Below are positions 601 to 11,760 of a DNA stretch of 11,760 bases, piece after piece. Both the position numbers and the translations under genes were made by a program. Each line of letters begins with the position of its first letter. The first letter of the stretch is position 1. This stretch comes from a virus. The notes beneath the pieces are model-generated. The model saw nothing but the letters and a program-made list of their open reading frames with translations, did not search any database and had not been told where the DNA came from. The DNA is taken from UHGV virus genome UHGV-1590541; one strand, written 5' to 3'.

Positions 601-1587
601 CTATTTAAGAATAAAACGGTATTTACTGTCAGGAGTGCTTTGCTGATCAAGTAGCAGTGAACGACATGGAGCAGTCAAAACCCGAGCATAACTACCATCA
701 GGGCTTATGTTAATGTAACAAACCTTGCCCTTAACACTATAATTTTCGGGGACGGATGCCTTTGCTGATACAGTAAATTTAAGGGTATGCCAGCCCGTTT
801 TTTGCTTGTAGCTTGAAACCGAATGGAAATCATCTGAGTACTTATTTAACCCTGGAAACATGCTGCGCAGTGCGGGGATGGAATCTTCTATTATTTTATC
901 GTTGGTTTTAATGTTAAAAACGCTGGTTTCAGTAGAAGCTACTGCTTTGGCATTTCCCCATTTACCAGCGAACACAATCATTCCCACGAAAAATATTGCT
1001 ACAAGAACTAACACTCCCCCCAACACTACTACATGAGGCTTCCGGCTTCTGGTTGGTACAGTTGCGACTGATTTTGCACCGCTTTCCGATGGAGGTGATA
1101 GAGTTTTACTCTCATCACGAATATTCAGCAGATCATCAAAATAACCAAACACAGCCTGCAACTGCTCTTTGTCTAGGCCTTTAAGATGGGTTGTACCGAA
1201 ATGCTTCAGACAGTATCTGTCACGGTCAAGACGATACCCAGGGTCAGTAAGCGCCATTATTTTGCTGACCAGAAGATTACAGTCCTTCATATTCTGGATC
1301 TGTTGTGCATATCTCTGAAGGATCTCAACCGCACCATGATAATCAGCCGCAGTCATTTCATTAACTGTTTTGGTATTAAGTTTCGTGTGGATCGTCATCC
1401 ATAGCTCGCGCTTACTTTCCCCCAGATCAACCAATTCATCCATCAATCTGTGTAAATCGCGTTTTTGCAGCAACGAAATTGGTTGCTGGGCCGAAGGAAG
1501 TATGTCAGCAGAATAGTTATGAATGGTAACATCACCGCTGACAACGTTACCCACATCCCCGTTAACTGTTTGCTTCTCTTTACTCAT
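601..1587 (-). CDS. Single-pass membrane protein of unknown function (328 aa), co-transcribed with the prophage repressor
   Basis: ATG at 1587 overlaps the repressor stop (ATGA, 1584-1587). One predicted TM helix at about aa 185-207 (VVVLGGVLVLVAIFFVGMIVFAG) preceded by basic RSRKPH, implying N-in topology. The C-terminal domain of about 120 aa carries two Cys. No family recognised by eye. Lower GC than the phage core. Confidence 0.8.
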   Translation of the reverse strand: MSKEKQTVNGDVGNVVSGDVTIHNYSADILPSAQQPISLLQKRDLHRLMDELVDLGESKRELWMTIHTKLNTKTVNEMTAADYHGAVEILQRYAQQIQNMKDCNLLVSKIMALTDPGYRLDRDRYCLKHFGTTHLKGLDKEQLQAVFGYFDDLLNIRDESKTLSPPSESGAKSVATVPTRSRKPHVVVLGGVLVLVAIFFVGMIVFAGKWGNAKAVASTETSVFNIKTNDKIIEDSIPALRSMFPGLNKYSDDFHSVSSYKQKTGWHTLKFTVSAKASVPENYSVKGKVCYINISPDGSYARVLTAPCRSLLLDQQSTPDSKYRFILK

Positions 1588-2009
1588 CTTCTCTTGGTAT
1601 TTTTGTTCATTATTCCACCTGTTCCTATGGTTACGTTACCTTTGATAACATTCCCCAGAACATCTCCATGAATAACCTGTTCCGCCCGTTCTCTGGAGGA
1701 GCCAGTAGTCAAGGCCGACAAAACTGAACCTTTGACCTGTAATGGTGCCTGCCGGTAGTGCTGCAGTAACTCCATTTCATCACGTGATAAAGTTATACCT
1801 GATGACTCCCCGGTAAGAATGAACTGTACATTGGCCCCAATTCTTGCAAAGGCTGCAAGTAACTCACCTCCGGGAACAGCAACCCCTCGTTCATATTTCC
1901 CCCACATTTCTCTTGAAACGCCACAAAGGGCTGCTACTTCAGCCTGCTTGAGTGATAACCGCGAACGCTCAGCTTTGAACCGCGACGCGCAAAGAGAATC
2001 AAAATTCAC
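1584..2009 (-). CDS. Prophage repressor, XRE/cI-type helix-turn-helix (start probably GTG at 2009; longest ORF reaches ATG 2045)
   Basis: HTH segment LSLKQAEVAALCGVSREMWGKYERG, typical of XRE-family repressors. Divergent from the Ner-like gene. GTG at 2009 has a GAGG SD 5 nt upstream, whereas ATG 2045 has none and would leave only 50 bp for divergent promoters. C-terminal tail has a GDV/GNV repeat. Confidence 0.8.
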   Translation of the reverse strand: MNFDSLCASRFKAERSRLSLKQAEVAALCGVSREMWGKYERGVAVPGGELLAAFARIGANVQFILTGESSGITLSRDEMELLQHYRQAPLQVKGSVLSALTTGSSRERAEQVIHGDVLGNVIKGNVTIGTGGIMNKNTKRR

Positions 2010-2095
2010 ATAAACCTCATTGACAATGAGAACAATAGTTCTCATAATCTATCACATATAAAACAAACATCATTGCATCAACAAAGGAGACAACA
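2010..2095. promoter_or_regulatory. Divergent immunity control region: candidate operators plus rightward sigma70 early promoter
   Basis: Perfect palindrome CTCATTG-A-CAATGAG (2016-2030) overlapping a second dyad GAGAAC-AATA-GTTCTC (2028-2043). TTGACA (2020-2025), 17-bp spacer, CATAAT (2043-2048) facing the Ner-like gene. CACATAT motif at 2053-2059. Confidence 0.5.
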
Positions 2096-2655: not shown

Positions 2656-3570
2656 ATGGGACGCACCAAATCACCCGTTAACACTGAACTGAATGTTGAG
2701 GTTCCGCTGTCAGATAACATCAATGTCAATTTGAACGCTATGACACAGCATCGCATGGAAATTATGCAGCAGTTTGGTGATGGACTGCCTTATGAACGTG
2801 ATCGCATTGTTCACGAAGCACGTTTTTATATGGCGCAGAGTGCTGAATCTATGCTGGAAGCGGGTAAGCGGCTGATCATCTTAAAAGAAAATGAGCCACA
2901 CGGTGATTTTACAAACATTTTAGAAAATGAACTCGGACTTGCACCACAAGTTGCTCGCCGCATGATGCAAGCCAGTATGAAGTTTTTGGGAGAAGGTGAT
3001 GAGCCAACAAAACGCTCAACGTTGAGCGTTTTGGGGAAAGCCAAACTGTACGACCTGATGGTTCTGGATAATGAAGAACTTGATGAATTGGCCGACGGCG
3101 GCACAGTTGCCGGCCTGACGCTTGACGACGTTGATCGCATGTCAGTACGTGAATTGCGTCAGGCCCTGCGCGAAGCGCGCGAAACCAACGCAGCACAACA
3201 GCGCGTACTCGCCGACAAAAATGAAAAAATAGATTCACTCTCCACCAGACTGGAGAAGAAATCCCGTATTCAGCCGCCTGAGCCTGATGAGGAGGTTAAG
3301 AAGCTGCGGGCGGAAGTAACAGCATTAGCGGTTGAGGCGGAATCTGCTATCGCCGTCCGACTGTCCAGCGCTTTTGAGACGCTGTGCGCATATTGTGCTG
3401 AAAACATGATTGATACCCCCAGAGACTTCATGGCAGGCCTGGTCTGTCAACTGGAAAGCACAGCGCGTAGCCTGCGCTCCACATTTGACCTGCCGGACGA
3501 GCCAACAGGCAATGCAGCGCCTTCATGGCTGACTGAGCCGACGCCACAGATTAACGGGCTGGAGGCATAA
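2656..3570 (+). CDS. Hypothetical early protein (304 aa), acidic with predicted coiled-coil segments
   Basis: AAGGAG RBS. Stop at 3570 lies 3 nt before the transposase start. No domain recognised with confidence (possibly a DUF3102-like phage protein, from memory only). Confidence 0.8.
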   Translation: MGRTKSPVNTELNVEVPLSDNINVNLNAMTQHRMEIMQQFGDGLPYERDRIVHEARFYMAQSAESMLEAGKRLIILKENEPHGDFTNILENELGLAPQVARRMMQASMKFLGEGDEPTKRSTLSVLGKAKLYDLMVLDNEELDELADGGTVAGLTLDDVDRMSVRELRQALREARETNAAQQRVLADKNEKIDSLSTRLEKKSRIQPPEPDEEVKKLRAEVTALAVEAESAIAVRLSSAFETLCAYCAENMIDTPRDFMAGLVCQLESTARSLRSTFDLPDEPTGNAAPSWLTEPTPQINGLEA

Positions 3571-3573
3571 CCA

Positions 3574-5343
3574 ATGAATGCTGCCCTGACTGAACGACTG
3601 GTTTATGTCGCCCGCGCGGCACGTGACGCGGGGCATGGTAAACGCGGTGCAATATACGACGCTGCCTGTGCTGAACTTGGCATGTCCCGCGCCACTCTGC
3701 TGCGCAGGCTGAAGGAGGTCTCTGTGACTGATAAACGCAAAAAACGCGCCGATGCCGGGCGCAGCGCCCTGACCCGCGACGAAGCCGCGCTGATATCTGC
3801 CACACTGCGTGAGGCCACCCGCAAGAACGGTAAGCGTCTCTATTCCATCGCAGATGCAGTGGAAACCCTGCGGGCTAACGGCTTTATCACCGCAGGCAGA
3901 ACAGATGAAACCACCAGTGAGTTTTTCCCGTTGTCTGAAGATGCCATCAGCCGTGCTCTGCGTAACTATGGCCTGCCCCCGGAACAACTGGATGCCCCTG
4001 CACCACATACCGAAGTGGCCAGTCTGCATCCCAATCATGTCTGGCAGATTGACGCCTCACTCTGCACGCTTTACTACCTGAGCAATGGACATAAAGGGCT
4101 GCAGGTGATGGACAGCGCGAAGTTCTACAAGAACAAGCCCGCTAACCTTGCCCGTATCGCCAGTGACCGCGTGTGGAGTTACGAGATTACCGACCATGCC
4201 AGCGGCTGGATTTACGTTGAGTATGTGACGGGCGCGGAATCAGGTGAGAACCTGTGTTCTGTGCTTATCAACGCCATGCAGGAGCGTGGCGGCGCAGACG
4301 TGCTGCACGGCGTGCCGAAAATACTCTATCTCGACCCCGGCTCGGCAAACACCGCGGGTATGACGAAAAACATGTGCCGCTCACTGGGCATCGACCTGAT
4401 AGCGCACAAGCCGCATAACGCCCGCGCCACCGGACAGGTGGAAAAGGCGCGTGACATTATCGAACGCAAGCTGGAGCCGGGTCTGAAGTTCCGGCCGGTT
4501 CACGGTCTGGAAGAACTCAACGCGCTGGCCGCGAAATGGCGCAGCCACTTTAACGCCACGGCTGTTCACAGCCGCCACGGTAAAACCCGCACGGATATCT
4601 GGCTGAAGATTACTGCTGAGCAGCTGAAAAAAGCGCCTTCCGTTGAGGTATGTCGTGAACTGGCTGTGGCGGCACCAGAACTCCGCAAAGTCACGCCAAA
4701 ACTTCGTGTCTCGTTCCGGGGCACTGAATTTGACGTATCAACGGTACCGGGCGTACTGGTTGGTGAAAAACTGATGATTACCCGTAACCCATGGCGCAGC
4801 GATGTGGCACAGGTGGTTCTGACCGGTGAGGACGGCCACGAGACGTTCTTCCTGGTCGAAGAGGTCAGAAAGAACGAGTTTGGCTTTGCTGAAGGCGCGG
4901 CGGTATTTGGCGAAAGTTACAAAGCCCTGCCGGAAACCCCGGCACAGATGGCGGCAAAAGAAACCGAAGCGCTGGTTACCGGTACAGACAACGCCGCAGA
5001 TGCAGCCGCCGCACGCAAGGCGAAGGCGCTGCCGTTCGGCGGGCGGCTTGACCCGTATAAACATATCGACGACACCACACTTCCGGCCTATATGCCGAAG
5101 CGTGGTCAGGCCTCTGACGTACGCGGGCCGCGCACTGAACAACGTCCCATGACTCATGTGGAGGCCGCGAAAGCCCTGCGCGATAAGTTCAGCGCCGACG
5201 GCCTTACCTGGACGCCGGAACATTACCGCCAGTTAACGGCACAGTACCCGGACGGCGTACCGGAAGCCGCACTGGATGAAGTCATGGCCACGCTGACCAC
5301 ACCGGCCCGCAGCAGTGTTATCAGCATTGTTAACGGCAACTGA
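3574..5343 (+). CDS. DDE transposase (retroviral-integrase/rve-like catalytic core), functional analogue of Mu A (589 aa)
   Basis: GGAGG RBS. N-terminal HTH-like region, then candidate catalytic residues in HVWQIDASL, KILYLDPGSANTA and GQVEKARDIIERKLE, matching D..D..E spacing of rve-type transposases. Followed directly by an AAA+ ATPase, as in transposable phages. Confidence 0.9.
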   Translation: MNAALTERLVYVARAARDAGHGKRGAIYDAACAELGMSRATLLRRLKEVSVTDKRKKRADAGRSALTRDEAALISATLREATRKNGKRLYSIADAVETLRANGFITAGRTDETTSEFFPLSEDAISRALRNYGLPPEQLDAPAPHTEVASLHPNHVWQIDASLCTLYYLSNGHKGLQVMDSAKFYKNKPANLARIASDRVWSYEITDHASGWIYVEYVTGAESGENLCSVLINAMQERGGADVLHGVPKILYLDPGSANTAGMTKNMCRSLGIDLIAHKPHNARATGQVEKARDIIERKLEPGLKFRPVHGLEELNALAAKWRSHFNATAVHSRHGKTRTDIWLKITAEQLKKAPSVEVCRELAVAAPELRKVTPKLRVSFRGTEFDVSTVPGVLVGEKLMITRNPWRSDVAQVVLTGEDGHETFFLVEEVRKNEFGFAEGAAVFGESYKALPETPAQMAAKETEALVTGTDNAADAAAARKAKALPFGGRLDPYKHIDDTTLPAYMPKRGQASDVRGPRTEQRPMTHVEAAKALRDKFSADGLTWTPEHYRQLTAQYPDGVPEAALDEVMATLTTPARSSVISIVNGN

Positions 5344-5353
5344 GGAGGGAAAC

Positions 5354-6520
5354 ATGCTGGTACTGAAGCAGCAACTGAAAGAGGCCCGTATTCCACAGGC
5401 GGTGGTGGCGAGAGCTGTCGATGTTTCTGAGGCCACGCTGGCCCAGATTGTGAATCATAACGCGTGGCCCCGCACCAGCCCCGGAGAAGTGCGCCGGCGT
5501 CTTGCGTCCTGGCTGGAAAGTCAGGGGATTGATACAACGAAGAGTTTTGATGCTGTACAGGGCGCGGCCACGCCCCGTACAGCGGGTACCACAGATAAAA
5601 CGAGCCTCAGTGAGGAAGAGAATATGTTACTCAAAAAACAGGTGTTATTTCCAGCAACCAAAAAAGCGTTTGGTCTTTTCCGTGACCCGTTCGCCGACGA
5701 AGCCATGCAGGGTTCTGATGATGTGTTCACCACCCCGGACATTCGCTACGTGCGTGAGGCGCTGTACCAGACAGCCCGTCATGGTGGGTTTATGGCCGTC
5801 ATCGGTGAGTCCGGTGCGGGTAAATCCACGCTGCGCCGCGACCTGACTGAACGTATCAACCGCGAGAATGCGCCGGTAATTGTTATCGAGCCATACATCA
5901 TCGCTATGGAAGACAACGATGTGAAAGGGAAAACCCTGAAGGCAGCAGCTATTGCCGAAGCCATTATCAGTACCATCGCACCACTGGAAAGCATCAGACG
6001 CAGTCAGGACGCCCGTTTTCGCCAGTTGCATCGCGTCCTGAAAGACAGCAGCCAGGCGGGGTTCAGCCACGTTCTGGTGATTGAGGAGGCCCACAGTCTG
6101 CCCATTCCGACACTGAAACACCTCAAACGCTTTTTTGAGCTGGAGTCCGGTTTCAAAAAACTGCTGTCCATCGTGCTGATTGGCCAGCCGGAACTGGCGA
6201 CAAAACTGTCTGAACGCAATATGGAAGTCCGTGAAGTCGTTCAGCGCTGTGAGGTGGTCGAACTTCTGCCTCTGGACAATAACCTTGAAGAATTTCTGAC
6301 GTTCAAACTGCAACGGGCCGGTAAACAGCTGACGGACATTATGGACGCCGGTGCAGTGGATGCCATACGTGCCCGCCTGAGCAATCCGGGAAGTCACCGT
6401 AAAAATATGGTCAGCCTGCTGTATCCGCTGGCCGTCAGTAACCTGGTAATAGCCGCCATGAATCTGGCCGCTGAAATCGGGGTTCCACAGGTCAACGCTG
6501 ACGTTGTCAAAGGGGTTTAA
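5354..6520 (+). CDS. AAA+ ATPase transposition helper protein (MuB / TniB-like), N-terminal HTH (longest ORF starts at 5315)
   Basis: Walker A GESGAGKST and Walker B-like VLVIEEAH. GAGGAGGG RBS immediately upstream of ATG 5354, 11 nt after the transposase stop. Confidence 0.9.
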   Translation: MLVLKQQLKEARIPQAVVARAVDVSEATLAQIVNHNAWPRTSPGEVRRRLASWLESQGIDTTKSFDAVQGAATPRTAGTTDKTSLSEEENMLLKKQVLFPATKKAFGLFRDPFADEAMQGSDDVFTTPDIRYVREALYQTARHGGFMAVIGESGAGKSTLRRDLTERINRENAPVIVIEPYIIAMEDNDVKGKTLKAAAIAEAIISTIAPLESIRRSQDARFRQLHRVLKDSSQAGFSHVLVIEEAHSLPIPTLKHLKRFFELESGFKKLLSIVLIGQPELATKLSERNMEVREVVQRCEVVELLPLDNNLEEFLTFKLQRAGKQLTDIMDAGAVDAIRARLSNPGSHRKNMVSLLYPLAVSNLVIAAMNLAAEIGVPQVNADVVKGV

Positions 6521-6522
6521 TA

Positions 6523-6792
6523 ATGAAATCCACCACAGGTATCAACCAGCAAATCAGCAAAGTGCAGTCAGCCATTATGGCGCTTAAGGCGACGAACACG
6601 GATGTACAAAGCATCACCATCAGGGGTAACAAACCTGTCATCCGCGTTTCCCGGAGTGCGCATTGCATGCGCATGCTTGAGCAGGGAAAGGCCTGTTATC
6701 TGTATACCGGACATGACCACAGGGGATATTTCCGTCAGGGCGTTTTCGAACTGCACGGCTGTCGCGTCGTGTGGCCGGAATCTTTGTGGTAA
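6523..6792 (+). CDS. Hypothetical small early protein (89 aa)
   Basis: ATG 2 nt after the B stop, preceded by AAGGGG. No recognisable domain. Confidence 0.65.
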   Translation: MKSTTGINQQISKVQSAIMALKATNTDVQSITIRGNKPVIRVSRSAHCMRMLEQGKACYLYTGHDHRGYFRQGVFELHGCRVVWPESLW

Positions 6793-6819
6793 TCAGCACA
6801 ACTGGAGAAATCATAAAAA

Positions 6820-7350
6820 ATGGCAAAAAGTACAAAAGGTGCAAAACGTATCAAGGCCGCAGCAGCACTCTGGGTGCCGGGGACACGTGAAGAGGTCATT
6901 GAGGGAATCAGACTACTCGGTGACGCACAACGTGAACTGGTCAGGGCTGAAACAGAAATGAATGACGCCATTGGCGATATCACCGCACGTTATGCCCCGC
7001 TCACCGAGAGCCTGAAAAAACGCATGGCCGAACTGCAGTCCGGTATTCAGACATGGTGTGAGGCACACCGTGATGAACTGACCGGCAACGGGAAGGTGAA
7101 GTTCGCTAACCTCACCACCGGCGAGGTGCAGTGGCGAAACCGTCCGCCATCAGTCAGTATCCGTGGGGCGGATAATGTTATTGAATTACTGAGACGTCTG
7201 GGGCTTGAGCGCTTTATTCGTGTAAAAGAGGAAATAAATAAAGACGCTATCCTGAATGAAAAAGAGGCCGTGAAAAATATTCCCGGTATTTCCATTAAAA
7301 GCGACATTGAGGATTTTTCAATAATTCCTTTTGAGCAGGATGTGCAGTAA
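6820..7350 (+). CDS. gam: Host-nuclease inhibitor protein Gam (Mu Gam family, Ku-like DNA-end-binding)
   Basis: 176 aa. Long collinear matches to Mu Gam as I remember it: MAK..KRIK.AAA..VP at the N-terminus, ETEMNDAI, WCEA.RDELT, RPPSVSIRG, LERLGL.RFIR.K.EINKEAIL and a C-terminal IEDFSIIPFEQ. Confidence 0.95.
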   Translation: MAKSTKGAKRIKAAAALWVPGTREEVIEGIRLLGDAQRELVRAETEMNDAIGDITARYAPLTESLKKRMAELQSGIQTWCEAHRDELTGNGKVKFANLTTGEVQWRNRPPSVSIRGADNVIELLRRLGLERFIRVKEEINKDAILNEKEAVKNIPGISIKSDIEDFSIIPFEQDVQ

Positions 7351-7447
7351 ACACACCACGTTAATTATTTAATAAAAACATTTTCTTTTTTATTCCGACG
7401 TCAGCGCCGCGGGCTTCTGCACGCCGGAAACAGAGGAGAATTAAATC

Positions 7448-7642
7448 ATGATATTTAAATGTATTCAGTGCGAGAGGGATATAACAGCCCTGCGTTTTCA
7501 CAGCGCCATCGCCGTGATGTCCGGTAAATACCACATCCCTGCGGTACGCGTCACCCTGGTCTGCCCGTACTGCAGCCAGCATTTTTCGGCAGACGTGCCC
7601 GTCATGGAATTCTCCCGCCCTGACAGGGAGGACTCGCAATGA
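7448..7642 (+). CDS. Small zinc-ribbon protein (64 aa, CxxC...CxxC)
   Basis: Cys pairs at C5/C8 and C39/C42. Its stop overlaps the next gene start (ATGA at 7639-7642). Preceded by a 97-bp AT-rich spacer after gam. Confidence 0.65.
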   Translation: MIFKCIQCERDITALRFHSAIAVMSGKYHIPAVRVTLVCPYCSQHFSADVPVMEFSRPDREDSQ

Positions 7643-7911
7643 TTACCCCACAGGAAGCACGACAGCGCACCCGAACCCTTGTTGAACACTATGTCAACGA
7701 GTGTGAATGCCGCGACCTCACCGATGTGAAGCACGTCCTGACGGCGCTAATCAGCATGACCGCTCAAGCCATTGTGGCGACCAACGGAAAGGCGGCTGCC
7801 CTGCAGGTACTGGTGAACACACTAACCCACACGGCAGCGCATGAGGTGCCGTACCGGATGGAAACCACTGCAGAAGGCGGCCTGCACATCACCGTCAGCC
7901 GGAAGCACTGA
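7639..7911 (+). CDS. Hypothetical small early protein (90 aa)
   Basis: Translationally coupled to the upstream gene (ATGA overlap). No recognisable domain. Confidence 0.6.
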   Translation: MITPQEARQRTRTLVEHYVNECECRDLTDVKHVLTALISMTAQAIVATNGKAAALQVLVNTLTHTAAHEVPYRMETTAEGGLHITVSRKH

Positions 7912-7920
7912 GGGCGCGGC

Positions 7921-8217
7921 ATGACACGGAACACCATACTCACCCGCACCGCCCTCTACCGTCTGGCCCTGCAGCGTTTCGGGCCGGACGCACAGGCCCT
8001 GAAACTGACAGAAGAGGCCGCTGAACTGGCGGCCAGTGCTGCCCGCAATCTGAACGGACAGGGCAGCGAAAGCGACCTCGCGGCAGAGCTGGCAGACGTG
8101 GAAATCATGACAGAGCAATTGCGCCTTCAGGGGATGGACCGGCTGATTGACTTCCACAAACAGAAAAAACTGGAACGTCTGGCTGCACGACTGGGCGTGA
8201 TTTACACGAACGAGTAA
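7921..8217 (+). CDS. MazG-like all-alpha nucleoside triphosphate pyrophosphohydrolase domain protein (98 aa), tentative
   Basis: GAGGG RBS. Contains EExxE (LTEEAAELA) followed about 30 residues later by ExxD (AELADVEIM), the metal-binding signature of MazG-like NTP-PPases. Confidence 0.55.
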   Translation: MTRNTILTRTALYRLALQRFGPDAQALKLTEEAAELAASAARNLNGQGSESDLAAELADVEIMTEQLRLQGMDRLIDFHKQKKLERLAARLGVIYTNE

Positions 8218-8231
8218 CCGGGAGGCATTCA

Positions 8232-8447
8232 ATGGCTGACATACTCAGGGAAATCACCGCATGGATACTGATTCTTACTGGCCTGGCGACATGCCTCAGT
8301 GCGGGGGCAGCCCTGGCTGCCCTGCTGATGCACATAACAACACAGTGGTTATGGGAAAAGCTTAAAGCAGCATACAGCCTGAAAGAGCTGTCCGACGCTG
8401 TCCGGGCATGGAAACGGCAGAAAAATACCGGAGATACAGAACAATGA
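8232..8447 (+). CDS. Small membrane protein (71 aa, one TM helix)
   Basis: GGGAGG RBS. Hydrophobic stretch ITAWILILTGLATCLSAGAALAALLM. Stop overlaps the next start (ATGA at 8444-8447). Confidence 0.6.
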   Translation: MADILREITAWILILTGLATCLSAGAALAALLMHITTQWLWEKLKAAYSLKELSDAVRAWKRQKNTGDTEQ

Positions 8448-9127
8448 CAGACCAGAATAAACACATTGAGAAACTGAAAAAGTTGCTGGCGCTGGCCGCA
8501 TCCGGCAACCCGCACGAGGCCGCTCTGGCACTGCGCCGAGCCCGTAAACTGATGGATGTTCACGGCATCACACATTCCGACATTGCTATGAGTGATATTG
8601 ATGAAACCATCAGTCACTACTGGCCGACAGGCAGTCTCCGTCCACCGCGCTACATGCTGGGCCTGATGAACATCATCCGCGAGGTATTTGGTGTTAACTC
8701 CATCATTCACCCCGGCACGCATCCGTCTGTGGGGTTCTACGGCAACCGGGAACGTGCGGCACTGGCTGCATACACCTGGGAAGTGCTGGCCCGTCAGCTG
8801 AAAAAGGCGCGTCAGCAGTATATCAGTGCACAGAACAAAAGAATAAAAACCGCCACCCGCACCAGCCGTGGAGACCAGTTTGCCGAAGGCTGGGTGCTGG
8901 CCGTTATCAGTGAAATACAGTCCTTTGCCCTGACCGATGATGAGCGTGAACTGATGCAGCAGTGGCTGGAACATAAATACCCGCAGACGCAAACCACCAG
9001 GGCGCGTAAACCGGGAAGAAGCCGCAATGGCGACGCCTCGCGCTATGCGGGGTTTCGTGAAGGGCAGAACGTCAGACTGCACCGCCCGGTCAGTGGGCAG
9101 GAACAACAGAAACTGGAGGCCAGATGA
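8444..9127 (+). CDS. DUF2786-like phage protein (227 aa; longest ORF starts at 8408)
   Basis: N-terminal KHIEKLKKLLALAASGNPHEAALALRRARKLM matches the DUF2786 signature as I remember it. ATG 8444 is coupled to the upstream stop. Confidence 0.7.
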   Translation: MTDQNKHIEKLKKLLALAASGNPHEAALALRRARKLMDVHGITHSDIAMSDIDETISHYWPTGSLRPPRYMLGLMNIIREVFGVNSIIHPGTHPSVGFYGNRERAALAAYTWEVLARQLKKARQQYISAQNKRIKTATRTSRGDQFAEGWVLAVISEIQSFALTDDERELMQQWLEHKYPQTQTTRARKPGRSRNGDASRYAGFREGQNVRLHRPVSGQEQQKLEAR

Positions 9128-9551: not shown

Positions 9552-10001
9552 ATGCAGAAAAAACGCCTGATACAGCTTATCCATATTGCCCGTAATGAAC
9601 TGGGTATGGATGAAGACACCTACCGCCAGATGTTACAGGGGCTGACCGGTAAAGCCTCAACCAAAGGAATGGATACCACACAACTAAACTGCGTGCTGGA
9701 ATCCATGAAAAAGAAAGGCTTTCGCGTTAAACCAGCCAGAAAAGCCAGCTCCGGTTTACCGCTGGATAACCATCCGCAGTCCAGGAAAATTCGTGCGCTA
9801 TGGCTTGAAATGGCTGCTGCCGGCATTGTTCGTGACCGTTCAGAAAATGCATTAGCGAGGTGGATCAAGCGGGAAACGGGCATCAGCGCCCTGCGCTGGC
9901 TCAGTACTGAACAGGCAAGCAGTGTTATTGAGAAACTGAAGAAGTGGCAGCGCAGAGCTGCGGGAGTCAAACATGAGCGACCTGAATCAGTTTCGAAGTA
10001 A
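9552..10001 (+). CDS. gemA: GemA-like regulatory protein (Mu gp16 family, DUF1018)
   Basis: AGGAG RBS. LIQLIHIARNELGMDEDTYRQML..LTGKAS and RKIRALWLEMAAAGIV resemble the Mu gp16/GemA family. Sits immediately upstream of and overlapping mor, as in Mu. Confidence 0.8.
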   Translation: MQKKRLIQLIHIARNELGMDEDTYRQMLQGLTGKASTKGMDTTQLNCVLESMKKKGFRVKPARKASSGLPLDNHPQSRKIRALWLEMAAAGIVRDRSENALARWIKRETGISALRWLSTEQASSVIEKLKKWQRRAAGVKHERPESVSK

Positions 10002-10362
10002 GGGGCCGGAACTCCTGGTGGAACTGGCACAGCATACCTCTGAGACCGTTCGCGAGATTATTGATATTGAGCCCGAAGTTGCCGACCAGATTGGTCAGGC
10101 CGTCGCGAACCGAATGATGCAGGTCTGGGGCGGGCAAAACGTTTATTTCCCGATGGGCATGGTATGGAAGGTCAGTCAGCGCGACCGGGAAATCTTCAGG
10201 GAGTTTAACGGACGCAACCACCACGAACTGGCCCGCAAATTTGGTGTTTCGCTTCAGTGGGTCTACAGCGTGGTTAAGCGGGTAAGAAAAGAAGAACTGG
10301 ATCGGATGCAGGGCAAGCTATTTGCTGATGAACCCGATGCAGATACGGAGAAAAAAGAGTAA
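9973..10362 (+). CDS. mor: Mor-family transcription activator (middle operon regulator)
   Basis: 129 aa, same length as Mu Mor. C-terminal half (VWGGQNVYFPMG...FREFNGRNHHELARKFGVSLQWVYSVVKRVRK) aligns closely with the Mu Mor HTH region as I remember it. Confidence 0.9.
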   Translation: MSDLNQFRSKGPELLVELAQHTSETVREIIDIEPEVADQIGQAVANRMMQVWGGQNVYFPMGMVWKVSQRDREIFREFNGRNHHELARKFGVSLQWVYSVVKRVRKEELDRMQGKLFADEPDADTEKKE

Positions 10363-10391
10363 TATCTGCAATCAGGCTGGCGCGAGTTCTG

Positions 10392-10448
<57 letters not shown>

Positions 10449-10776: not shown

Positions 10777-11760
10777 TTACATATATGCAGCTCCCATCAC
10801 TTCTTCTGGTGAAATCTCTTTATCGTTGGTTAGCAATACCCAGAGCACTCTGGCATTTTTGTTGTTCAGCGCTACGGTGGCAACATTTTTATTCCGCCGC
10901 GAGACTGGTCTGCCCAGCCAGCTTTCCTGGACCTGTCTGCCCTTTCTGGCGTTTGACACTGTCTTCGCACCATGGAACAGTAGCGTTCTGATATAGACAT
11001 CGTCCCGTTTACTGATAGACCCCAGCGTGTTTTTACCTACGCTGAAGCACTGTCGGGGAACCAGTCCAAGCCATGCAGCAAGCTGACGCCGGTTTTTGAA
11101 GCCGATACTACCCGGTGCTGACAATTGCAGTGGTGGTAAGAATAGCAATCCCCGAAATGGTGGCAATTTTCCTGCACAGTTCGTCGTTCCCGACGTGTTC
11201 GTTGCTAACGGCTTCTATGGTTTCAATGTGTACGCTCAGTTGTTTCACATTTTCATTAGAGATAGGACGACAGCTGTCTGAACGGCATTGTTAAACAGTT
11301 TTCCGCGTCTTCAAGCAGGGCAGGGACATGACGACTGATCGCTACAGTGTCGGGCGGGAGAACGATGCCAAATTCAGCCAGTAATCCTCTGATCTGGTTT
11401 ATCTGCGCAGTCCTTGATTTAACAAACCCCGTCAGGGCACGATGAAAAGACAGTAATGACTACTGCTCAGGCGTCTTGATGCTGACAAACCGCATATTAG
11501 GTCGGGTAACGGCTTCACAGATGGCCTCGGCAGCAGCCATATCATTCTTGTTTGTTTTCACATATGGCTTTACAAATCGCGGGCATTAGTCTGACATTAT
11601 GCCCCTAAGTAGACAGCATTCTCACTAATGACGCGCTCCGGCGCAGACCTCCATCCCAATCCGACAGGAAGACATATTCGCGAAGAATACGGGCATCAGG
11701 GAACGTTTAATCCGTTTTCTGAGCTTAGATTTTTCTGTTCCTACCCAGACCGTGGATTTG
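10777..11760 (-). pseudogene. IS110-family (DEDD) transposase, decayed: multiple in-frame stops and frameshifts; N-terminus beyond window end
   Basis: Minus-strand translation gives segments in three frames that read collinearly like an IS110-family transposase: FFANMSSCRIGMEVCAGARH, PYVKTNKNDMAAAEAICEAVTRPNMRFVSIKTPEQ, IRGLLAEFGIV, ISGIAILTTTAIV, RRQLAAWLGLVPRQ...ISKRDDVYIRTLLFHGAKTV, VATVALNNKNARVLW. In-frame stops at 11622-11627 (TAG TGA), 11586-11588 (TAA) and 11460-11462 (TAG); frame changes near 11256 and near 11110-11125. Confidence 0.8.

Follow-up and report, generated by a model that had tools for sequence, protein, structure and literature searches.

The semi-essential early region of phage Mu (kil, gam, gemA) is linked to host-directed functions. 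The same part of Mu-type early operons encodes CxxC mini-proteins of 60-76 residues, Mu gp6 (E5) and gp13 (E14). Gp6 (Mu 4542-4772) has two CxxC pairs and is encoded upstream of gam, and gp13 (Mu 7471-7653) has four CxxC motifs. A third small protein of a Mu-type phage is Com, with about 62 residues and a C4 zinc module at its N terminus. It switches on the translation of mom when it binds a hairpin beside the structure that hides the start site (PMC6483171). The locus described here encodes a 64-residue zinc-ribbon protein in the block behind gam, which by position is the counterpart of the Mu semi-essential early region. The protein is like Com in its small size, its C4 zinc module and its similar knuckle residues, but its family has an insertion of 14-15 residues between the knuckles and lacks the disordered basic tail. 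Both knuckles of gp6 align to the family profile (hhalign probability 58%) and one knuckle of gp13 aligns (36%), but the two Mu proteins differ from the family in cysteine spacing. A literature search on WP_001295928.1, DUF3164 and Mu-like zinc ribbons or anti-defence functions returned nothing relevant beyond the Com paper (PMC6483171).

The window is the whole stretch of DNA that was analysed, 11,760 nucleotides of virus genome UHGV-1590541. It is the early operon of a BcepMu-like transposable prophage. Segment 7300-7700 matches Escherichia phage PhiKM (genus Bcepmuvirus) with 100% identity, and the prophage was found in 621 of 5,426 complete E. coli genomes, about 1 in 9, in the chromosome every time. 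Pfam and PHROG scans assigned an HTH repressor (1584-2045, minus strand), a ner-like HTH protein (2096-2284), an IclR-type HTH protein (2274-2645), a DUF3102 protein (2656-3570), the rve transposase (3574-5343) and an AAA_22 MuB-like ATPase (5315-6520). An 89-residue ORF (6523-6792) separates the ATPase gene from the gene for the host-nuclease inhibitor Gam (6820-7350, plus strand; phrog_491), which is 62% identical to Mu Gam. The sequence-only reading had named this upstream gene gam, and the Pfam match agrees (PF07352, E 9.9e-41). The zinc-ribbon gene follows after a gap, and its stop codon overlaps by 4 nt (ATGA) with a 90-residue ORF on the plus strand (7639-7911; phrog_3691, E 7e-55). The operon continues with a MazG-like ORF (7921-8217), a 71-residue ORF (8232-8447), a DUF2786/DUF7168 gene (8408-9127), two small ORFs, GemA (9552-10001) and Mor (9973-10362). 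Compared with PhiKM and E. coli strain 4/1-1, the window is a mosaic. Its immunity region (601-2045, minus strand) is unlike theirs and encodes a 153-residue HTH repressor and a 328-residue ORF that has no Pfam match. PhiKM and strain 4/1-1 have a 105-residue ORF between the DUF3102 and transposase genes that is missing from the window (3570-3574). A 16-nt inverted repeat lies right after mor, near the prophage end (10370-10414), and a fragment of an IS110-family transposase (PF02371, E 9e-11), apparently broken across frames, is found at 10777-11166 on the minus strand.

The 64-residue ORF with two CxxC pairs that was noticed from the letters alone is present at 7448-7642 on the plus strand. 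It starts with ATG, encodes 64 residues (MIFKCIQCERDITALRFHSAIAVMSGKYHIPAVRVTLVCPYCSQHFSADVPVMEFSRPDREDSQ) and is preceded by the Shine-Dalgarno sequence GAGGAG (7433-7438), located 9 nt ahead of the start codon. The CxxC pairs occupy residues 5-8 and 39-42, and the four cysteine codons are at 7460-7462, 7469-7471, 7562-7564 and 7571-7573. PGAP annotation of an identical prophage places the gene on the plus strand as WP_001295928.1, and the Klebsiella phage KP12 record annotates the plus-strand gene as well. About 150 loci were gathered by scanning genomes and viral contigs. Among 47 distinct coding sequences, the variable columns at codon positions 1, 2 and 3 numbered 31, 18 and 52, respectively, with the third position the most variable. 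The plus-frame dN/dS calculated by the Nei-Gojobori method was 0.06 among sequences of the E. coli clade, 0.16 among those of the sister clade and 0.17 when the two clades were compared. The length of the protein is steady across relatives at 60-70 residues. The low dN/dS in the plus frame, set against an antisense pN/pS of at least 1, shows that 7448-7642 is a real gene under purifying selection. In some relatives, the gene takes part in in-frame fusions or deletion chimeras (L060, 4001-4483; proteins P0016 and P0011). These are a 160-residue product with the MazG-like protein, a 110-residue product that joins the ribbon N terminus to the Mor C terminus, and a 109-residue read-through into the 90-residue gene. 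Many database 'homologues' of the zinc ribbon are frameshifted copies from raw-read assemblies.

The protein matches PHROG 3401 over its full length (E 1.6e-40, residues 1-64 on profile positions 1-64 of 64). PHROG 3401, to which WP_001295928.1 belongs, is the family itself, with the same place in the early operon and the same four cysteines, and it has no assigned function, Pfam model or structure. A HMMER search of 1.84 billion representative proteins gave 10 matches at E <= 0.001, all of them from the same narrow family or frameshifted copies. A profile search returned 55 clusters, every one from Enterobacterales, labelled 'hypothetical' and without a Pfam domain. These data show that the family is narrow. 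Pfam and NCBIfam searches with the zinc-ribbon protein and its family gave sub-threshold knuckle matches only. PADLOC had no match to the window protein, and one distant member matched PtuB with E 0.03, which reflects the CxxC knuckle. The sole return of a PDB profile search was a repeat artefact from designed WD40 proteins.

The sequence-only reading had staked the zinc ribbon on conserved cysteines, and this expectation was upheld, as the four cysteines are invariant or nearly so in 39 full-length homologues down to 22% identity. Within this set (22-97% identity), C5, C8, P40 and C42 are invariant and C39 is present in 37 of the 39 members; both exceptions are single raw-read assemblies. The structure predicted by AF2 from a 6-sequence alignment has a pLDDT of 88.4 and consists of three strands (residues 16-25, 30-38 and 45-51) and two knuckles, with further short strands at the first knuckle. 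The hallmarks of a C4 zinc ribbon are present: the two CxxC knuckles are conserved, and in the model they sit on beta-hairpins that clamp an antiparallel sheet. The proposed combination of structure prediction and fold search thus gave a confident ribbon, but the fold matches were generic. The nearest folds are zinc ribbons of the NrdR N-terminal and TFIIS types with non-significant scores. The NrdR N-terminal ribbon (PDB 7p37, 9fxk) is 17-19% identical to the protein, again with non-significant scores, and NrdR has an ATP-cone and DNA binding whereas the 64-residue protein is a ribbon alone. The fold is confidently predicted to be a zinc ribbon, as first proposed, and the protein takes an unremarkable but genuine place among the many small phage accessory proteins of the zinc-ribbon type. 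The family has a median pI of 4.7 and a net charge of -5 to -10 in over half of its members. Within the E. coli clade the protein is neutral (pI 6.8), and the sister clade is mildly basic, up to pI 8.9.

The gap between gam and the zinc-ribbon gene spans 7351-7447 (97 bp). It had been described as the only sizeable gap in the early operon, and both the ORF table and the PGAP annotation of the identical prophage bear this out: it is the single gap larger than about 30 bp from the ner-like gene (2096) to mor (10362). The gap is 41% GC compared to 51% for the window. Its description as an AT-rich spacer fits the first 45 nt, which are 20% GC, but not the last 52 nt, which are 60% GC and contain a conserved hairpin. 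The gap reads on the plus strand as a leader in four parts. The AT-rich 5' part (7351-7379) is about 20% GC, aligns with the start of the Mu gam-gp11 spacer, TAAtACCACcaTTAATaTTTAAT, and is poorly conserved among relatives of the DUF3164 type. A T(U)-tract (7380-7394, ATTTTCTTTTTTATT) lies just 5' of the hairpin and is nearly invariant in 40 unique variants. The leader core (7395-7427) is a GC-rich stem-loop, CCGACGTCAG-CGCCGCGGGCTT-CTGcACGCCGG. The last part (7428-7447) contains a conserved AAACAG, the Shine-Dalgarno sequence and an AT-rich stretch that reaches the ATG.

In an alignment of the upstream regions, no stretch of the neighbourhood is conserved as well as the 3' half of the gap. 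The core CGGCGTCAGyGCCGyGGGnTTCTGCACGCCG is invariant in 40 distinct variants whose flanking proteins go down to about 50% amino acid identity. The identical core is kept in three loci (L017, L108 and L123) where the zinc ribbon is only 24-31% identical. The leader core folds as a stem-loop of 13-16 bp, and the stem positions pair in 91.6% of cells compared to 29-49% in slid controls. There are compensatory changes at three basal pairs (UA/CG, UA/AU), and where a single change has been retained in several lineages, it is G.U-compatible on the plus strand. True stem mismatches are tip variants, among them A7398.C7424 of the window itself. A variable-loop scan for CGGCGTCAG-N8-16-CTGCACGCCG returned mainly chance matches in GC-rich coding sequence, and L184 and L190 were the only true stem-loop variants recovered by it.

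Several conventional functions for the element were considered. A repeated operator or Mor-binding site was rejected; neither the window nor the complete PhiKM genome has a second copy of the stem-loop, which argues against a repeated operator or activator site. An intrinsic terminator was rejected as well, since the T-run is 5' of the stem and AAACAG and an A-run are 3' of it, and a terminator scan made no call at 7395-7427. Read on the minus strand, AATAAAAAAG comes after the stem. No sigma-70 promoter (-35/-10 with 16-18 nt spacing) was detected in 6400-8400, where 1.7 sites are expected by chance. Rfam returned just two chance-level matches to eukaryotic RNAs in 7250-7550 (E 2.4 and 5.9). 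Leaders of the E. coli clade are predicted to form 10 bp between the U-tract and the Shine-Dalgarno region, but this prediction is inconsistent in other clades and is not made in Mu, and Shine-Dalgarno sequestration by the U-tract is at most a weak idea from folding predictions. From these data we infer that the stem-loop acts at the RNA level as an intercistronic element bordering the replication and accessory genes. It may affect either segmental mRNA stability or the translation of the distal genes.

A related leader is found in Mu. The Mu genome (NC_000929) has a 98-bp gap straight after gam at 6326-6423, between the end of Mup10 (6325) and the start of Mup11 (6424). The Mu and window spacers align along their length, and both have the AT-rich start, the T-tract and a GC stem-loop of about 30 nt. 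The sequence (T)GAAAcAG followed by GAGGAATAAA-CATG is common to the post-gam leaders of the window, Mu and SfMu. The stem sequence differs, GGCGCG..CGCGCC in Mu versus CGGCGTCAG..CTGCACGCCG in the window, and so does the gene behind the leader, which is gp11 in Mu, DUF5420 in SfMu and the zinc ribbon in the window. The SfMu leader is at 427-517 (L242), and the Mu and SfMu leaders are 91-98 bp long. In SfMu, the DUF5420 gene is inserted after the leader and ahead of the gp11 homologue. Within the BcepMu-like set, the gene after the leader is the zinc ribbon in most members, a 61-residue lipoprotein-like gene in about a dozen and a 69-residue gene in three. The element is annotated in none of the Mu records checked, and a literature search found no description of a Mu gam stem-loop leader. 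It seems that the leader is a conserved boundary and that the accessory slot behind it is variable. The more interesting by-product of this work is the post-gam stem-loop leader that is common to Mu, together with that variable slot, and the stem-loop is a testable candidate for splitting the long early transcript into differently expressed parts.

Three Salmonella relatives (L237-L239, 3100-3230) have another variant of the leader, consisting of a T-tract, a GC-rich stem-loop, CCTGAAATCA and then a Shine-Dalgarno sequence. This variant precedes a 177-residue gene, and the zinc ribbon is third behind it. The Burkholderia Mu-like phages phiE255 (L232, 3120-3136) and KS10 (L233, 3513-3529) share the hairpin CCGCGAGCGyTTCGCGG. 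It lies downstream of DUF3164 at the corresponding place, in the leader of a gene for an HU-like DNA-binding protein, and is a possible functional counterpart of the leader stem-loop.

The position next to gam had been offered as an argument for a host-interference factor, and this argument fails across the family. Only two clades, that of E. coli and a small one, have Gam upstream. A 203-residue DUF3164 protein (E 7e-80) takes this place in most other lineages, and a 78-residue protein and a 106-residue protein are the other upstream partners seen. In the Salmonella prophages, two other genes come between the leader and the zinc ribbon, and in L123 the ribbon is second, behind the 61-residue lipoprotein-like gene. 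In distant subfamilies it is third after the leader or directly behind another ORF with no gap. The gene 3' of the zinc ribbon varies by lineage. The 90-residue gene was considered as a conserved downstream partner and rejected; the overlapping 92-residue gene of the Salmonella relatives is unrelated to it. The zinc ribbon is absent, or present as a remnant or truncated gene, in the otherwise syntenic prophages L098 and L102. Mu, SfMu and the examined Burkholderia and Pseudomonas relatives have no homologue at this place. The position between the B-like ATPase and GemA/Mor is constant. The variable neighbours and variable presence indicate that the gene behaves as an accessory cassette and not as a partner of Gam. 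The zinc ribbon is one of several alternative first-slot genes after the stem-loop leader.

We favour a protein-binding accessory or host-interference role for the 64-residue protein and assign it a probability of roughly 45%. The protein would be an accessory early gene product with a fold held by one structural zinc and four cysteine ligands. Its exposed three-stranded sheet and acidic surface would bind another protein, either host or phage, and the type of role would be host takeover or counter-defence. On one side of the border marked by the leader would be the transposition and replication genes (A, B, and gam or DUF3164), and on the other the accessory block with gemA and mor as its last members. 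New first genes would slot in just 3' of the stem-loop. We infer zinc binding, expression, protein binding and any target of the protein. Direct binding of DNA or RNA by the protein is less likely. Protein binding is favoured over nucleic-acid binding because the family is mostly acidic and has no extra domain; the charge argument does not extend to all members, since the E. coli clade is neutral and the sister clade is mildly basic.

The host-interference role suggested by the sequence-only reading is plausible. The zinc ribbon belongs to the accessory genes of a Mu-like early operon, among which host-interference functions would be expected. Weighing against it, all relatives are labelled 'hypothetical', Pfam, NCBIfam and PADLOC give no match, and no conserved partner points to a target. 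In addition, the fold matches are non-significant, and there is a weak profile similarity to the RNA-binding Mu Com. The prophage is carried by about one-ninth of complete E. coli genomes, so the protein is common, yet it has never been studied. If it is an inhibitor of a host factor or defence system, it would be a very small zinc-stabilised addition to the known set, and the post-gam slot of Mu-like phages would be a place to seek more such genes.

The similarity to Com raises the idea that the protein is a translational regulator whose ribbon binds an RNA stem-loop, possibly its own leader hairpin. Binding would open or close a structure that hides the ribosome-binding site, in the manner of Com on the mom mRNA. 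Comparison of the family profile with Com by hhalign gave a probability of about 80% with the single sequence and 74% with the Com family profile (74-81% overall). Both knuckles and their flanks align, MSIKCxNCxK in the family with MKSIRCKNCNK in Com. The real score of 28.7 compares to 13.0 +/- 2.8 for Com shuffles with fixed cysteines, and 0 of 150 shuffles reached it. Other zinc ribbons, which served as controls only, gave at most 21% by hhalign. The location of the gene directly behind a conserved hairpin and the predicted U-tract pairing with the Shine-Dalgarno region in the E. coli clade are also in keeping with the idea.

These similarities are offset by several differences. Mu gp6 scores nearly as well at 58%. 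The Com family PF10122 is found in all true Com homologues, but it has no match to the window protein at E up to 1, and it is not among the 25 most-matched of 63 families for 16 members. The cysteine pairs are spaced by 30 residues in the family, compared to 16 in Com. The family lacks KLLFK and CPRCKR, two basic motifs that are invariant in Com; its second knuckle is CP[HY]C[SGA]Q, and most of its members are strongly acidic. The hairpin and the protein also come apart. In L098, L102, Mu and SfMu there is a hairpin but no zinc-ribbon protein, and L236-L239 encode the protein with no hairpin directly upstream of it. Protein identity drops as low as 22%, yet the hairpin core stays invariant. 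The 34.7-kb PhiKM record has no annotated Mom or Com, and the 90-residue ORF downstream of the zinc ribbon is unrelated. The gp6 score, the PF10122 miss, the cysteine and motif differences, the missing mom and the dissociation of hairpin and protein make Com-like regulation a minority explanation that we consider unlikely. Equally doubtful is the broader proposal that the leader is an undescribed regulatory and recombination boundary of Mu, SfMu and BcepMu-like phages and that the ribbon is a diverged Com-type RNA binder. If this were true, the leader would set distal early gene expression and mark the exchange slot for accessory cassettes, and leader and ribbon together would be a second Com-like translational switch in Mu-type phages.

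Another explanation is that the protein binds DNA or RNA polymerase and tunes early or late transcription in the manner of P2 Ogr, TraR/DksA-like proteins or the NrdR ribbon. The nearest folds, which are non-significant, are the NrdR N-terminal and TFIIS-type ribbons, and the operon is shared with the regulators GemA and Mor. However, neither Ogr/Delta nor DksA/TraR is in the Pfam table of the window protein at E up to 1, and neither is among the 25 most-matched of 63 families for the 16 members searched. The hhalign probability for P2 Ogr was 1.2%. Most members are acidic and have no domain beyond the ribbon, and the gene is dispensable in close relatives that retain GemA and Mor. A polymerase-binding or DNA-binding regulator is quite improbable on these data.

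Zinc ribbons are common in replication proteins, and the gene follows gam or DUF3164 in most lineages. The protein might then be a phage-internal helper of transposition, replication or DNA-end handling that works with Gam, DUF3164 or the transpososome rather than on a target in the host. This function would sit poorly with an upstream partner that is inconstant (Gam, DUF3164, the 78-residue protein or the 106-residue protein). Related phages do without the zinc ribbon, and no homologue is found at this place in Mu, SfMu or the examined Burkholderia and Pseudomonas relatives. We regard a helper role as a long shot, and an accessory protein that binds a host or phage partner is still the preferred interpretation.

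That the plus-strand ORF is not the gene, and that the antisense ORF is the true product or the region is non-coding, is very improbable: GenBank PQ738613 (PhiKM) has a minus-strand CDS and no plus-strand CDS here and a 92-residue antisense ORF stays open in the window, but pN/pS in the antisense frame is 1.0-1.9 and many relatives have that ORF interrupted, whereas the plus frame has a dN/dS of 0.06-0.17, a constant length, a strong Shine-Dalgarno sequence and the ATGA overlap, and both PGAP and the KP12 record place the gene on the plus strand. The antisense ORF (7361-7639, minus strand), which is cut to 48-67 codons in many relatives, is a shadow ORF and not a gene. The PhiKM CDS XRL29420.1 (8062-8283, minus strand, in PQ738613) corresponds to window positions 7361-7582 on the minus strand and is part of this ORF. 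The PQ738613 record therefore annotates the wrong strand and leaves out the zinc-ribbon gene.
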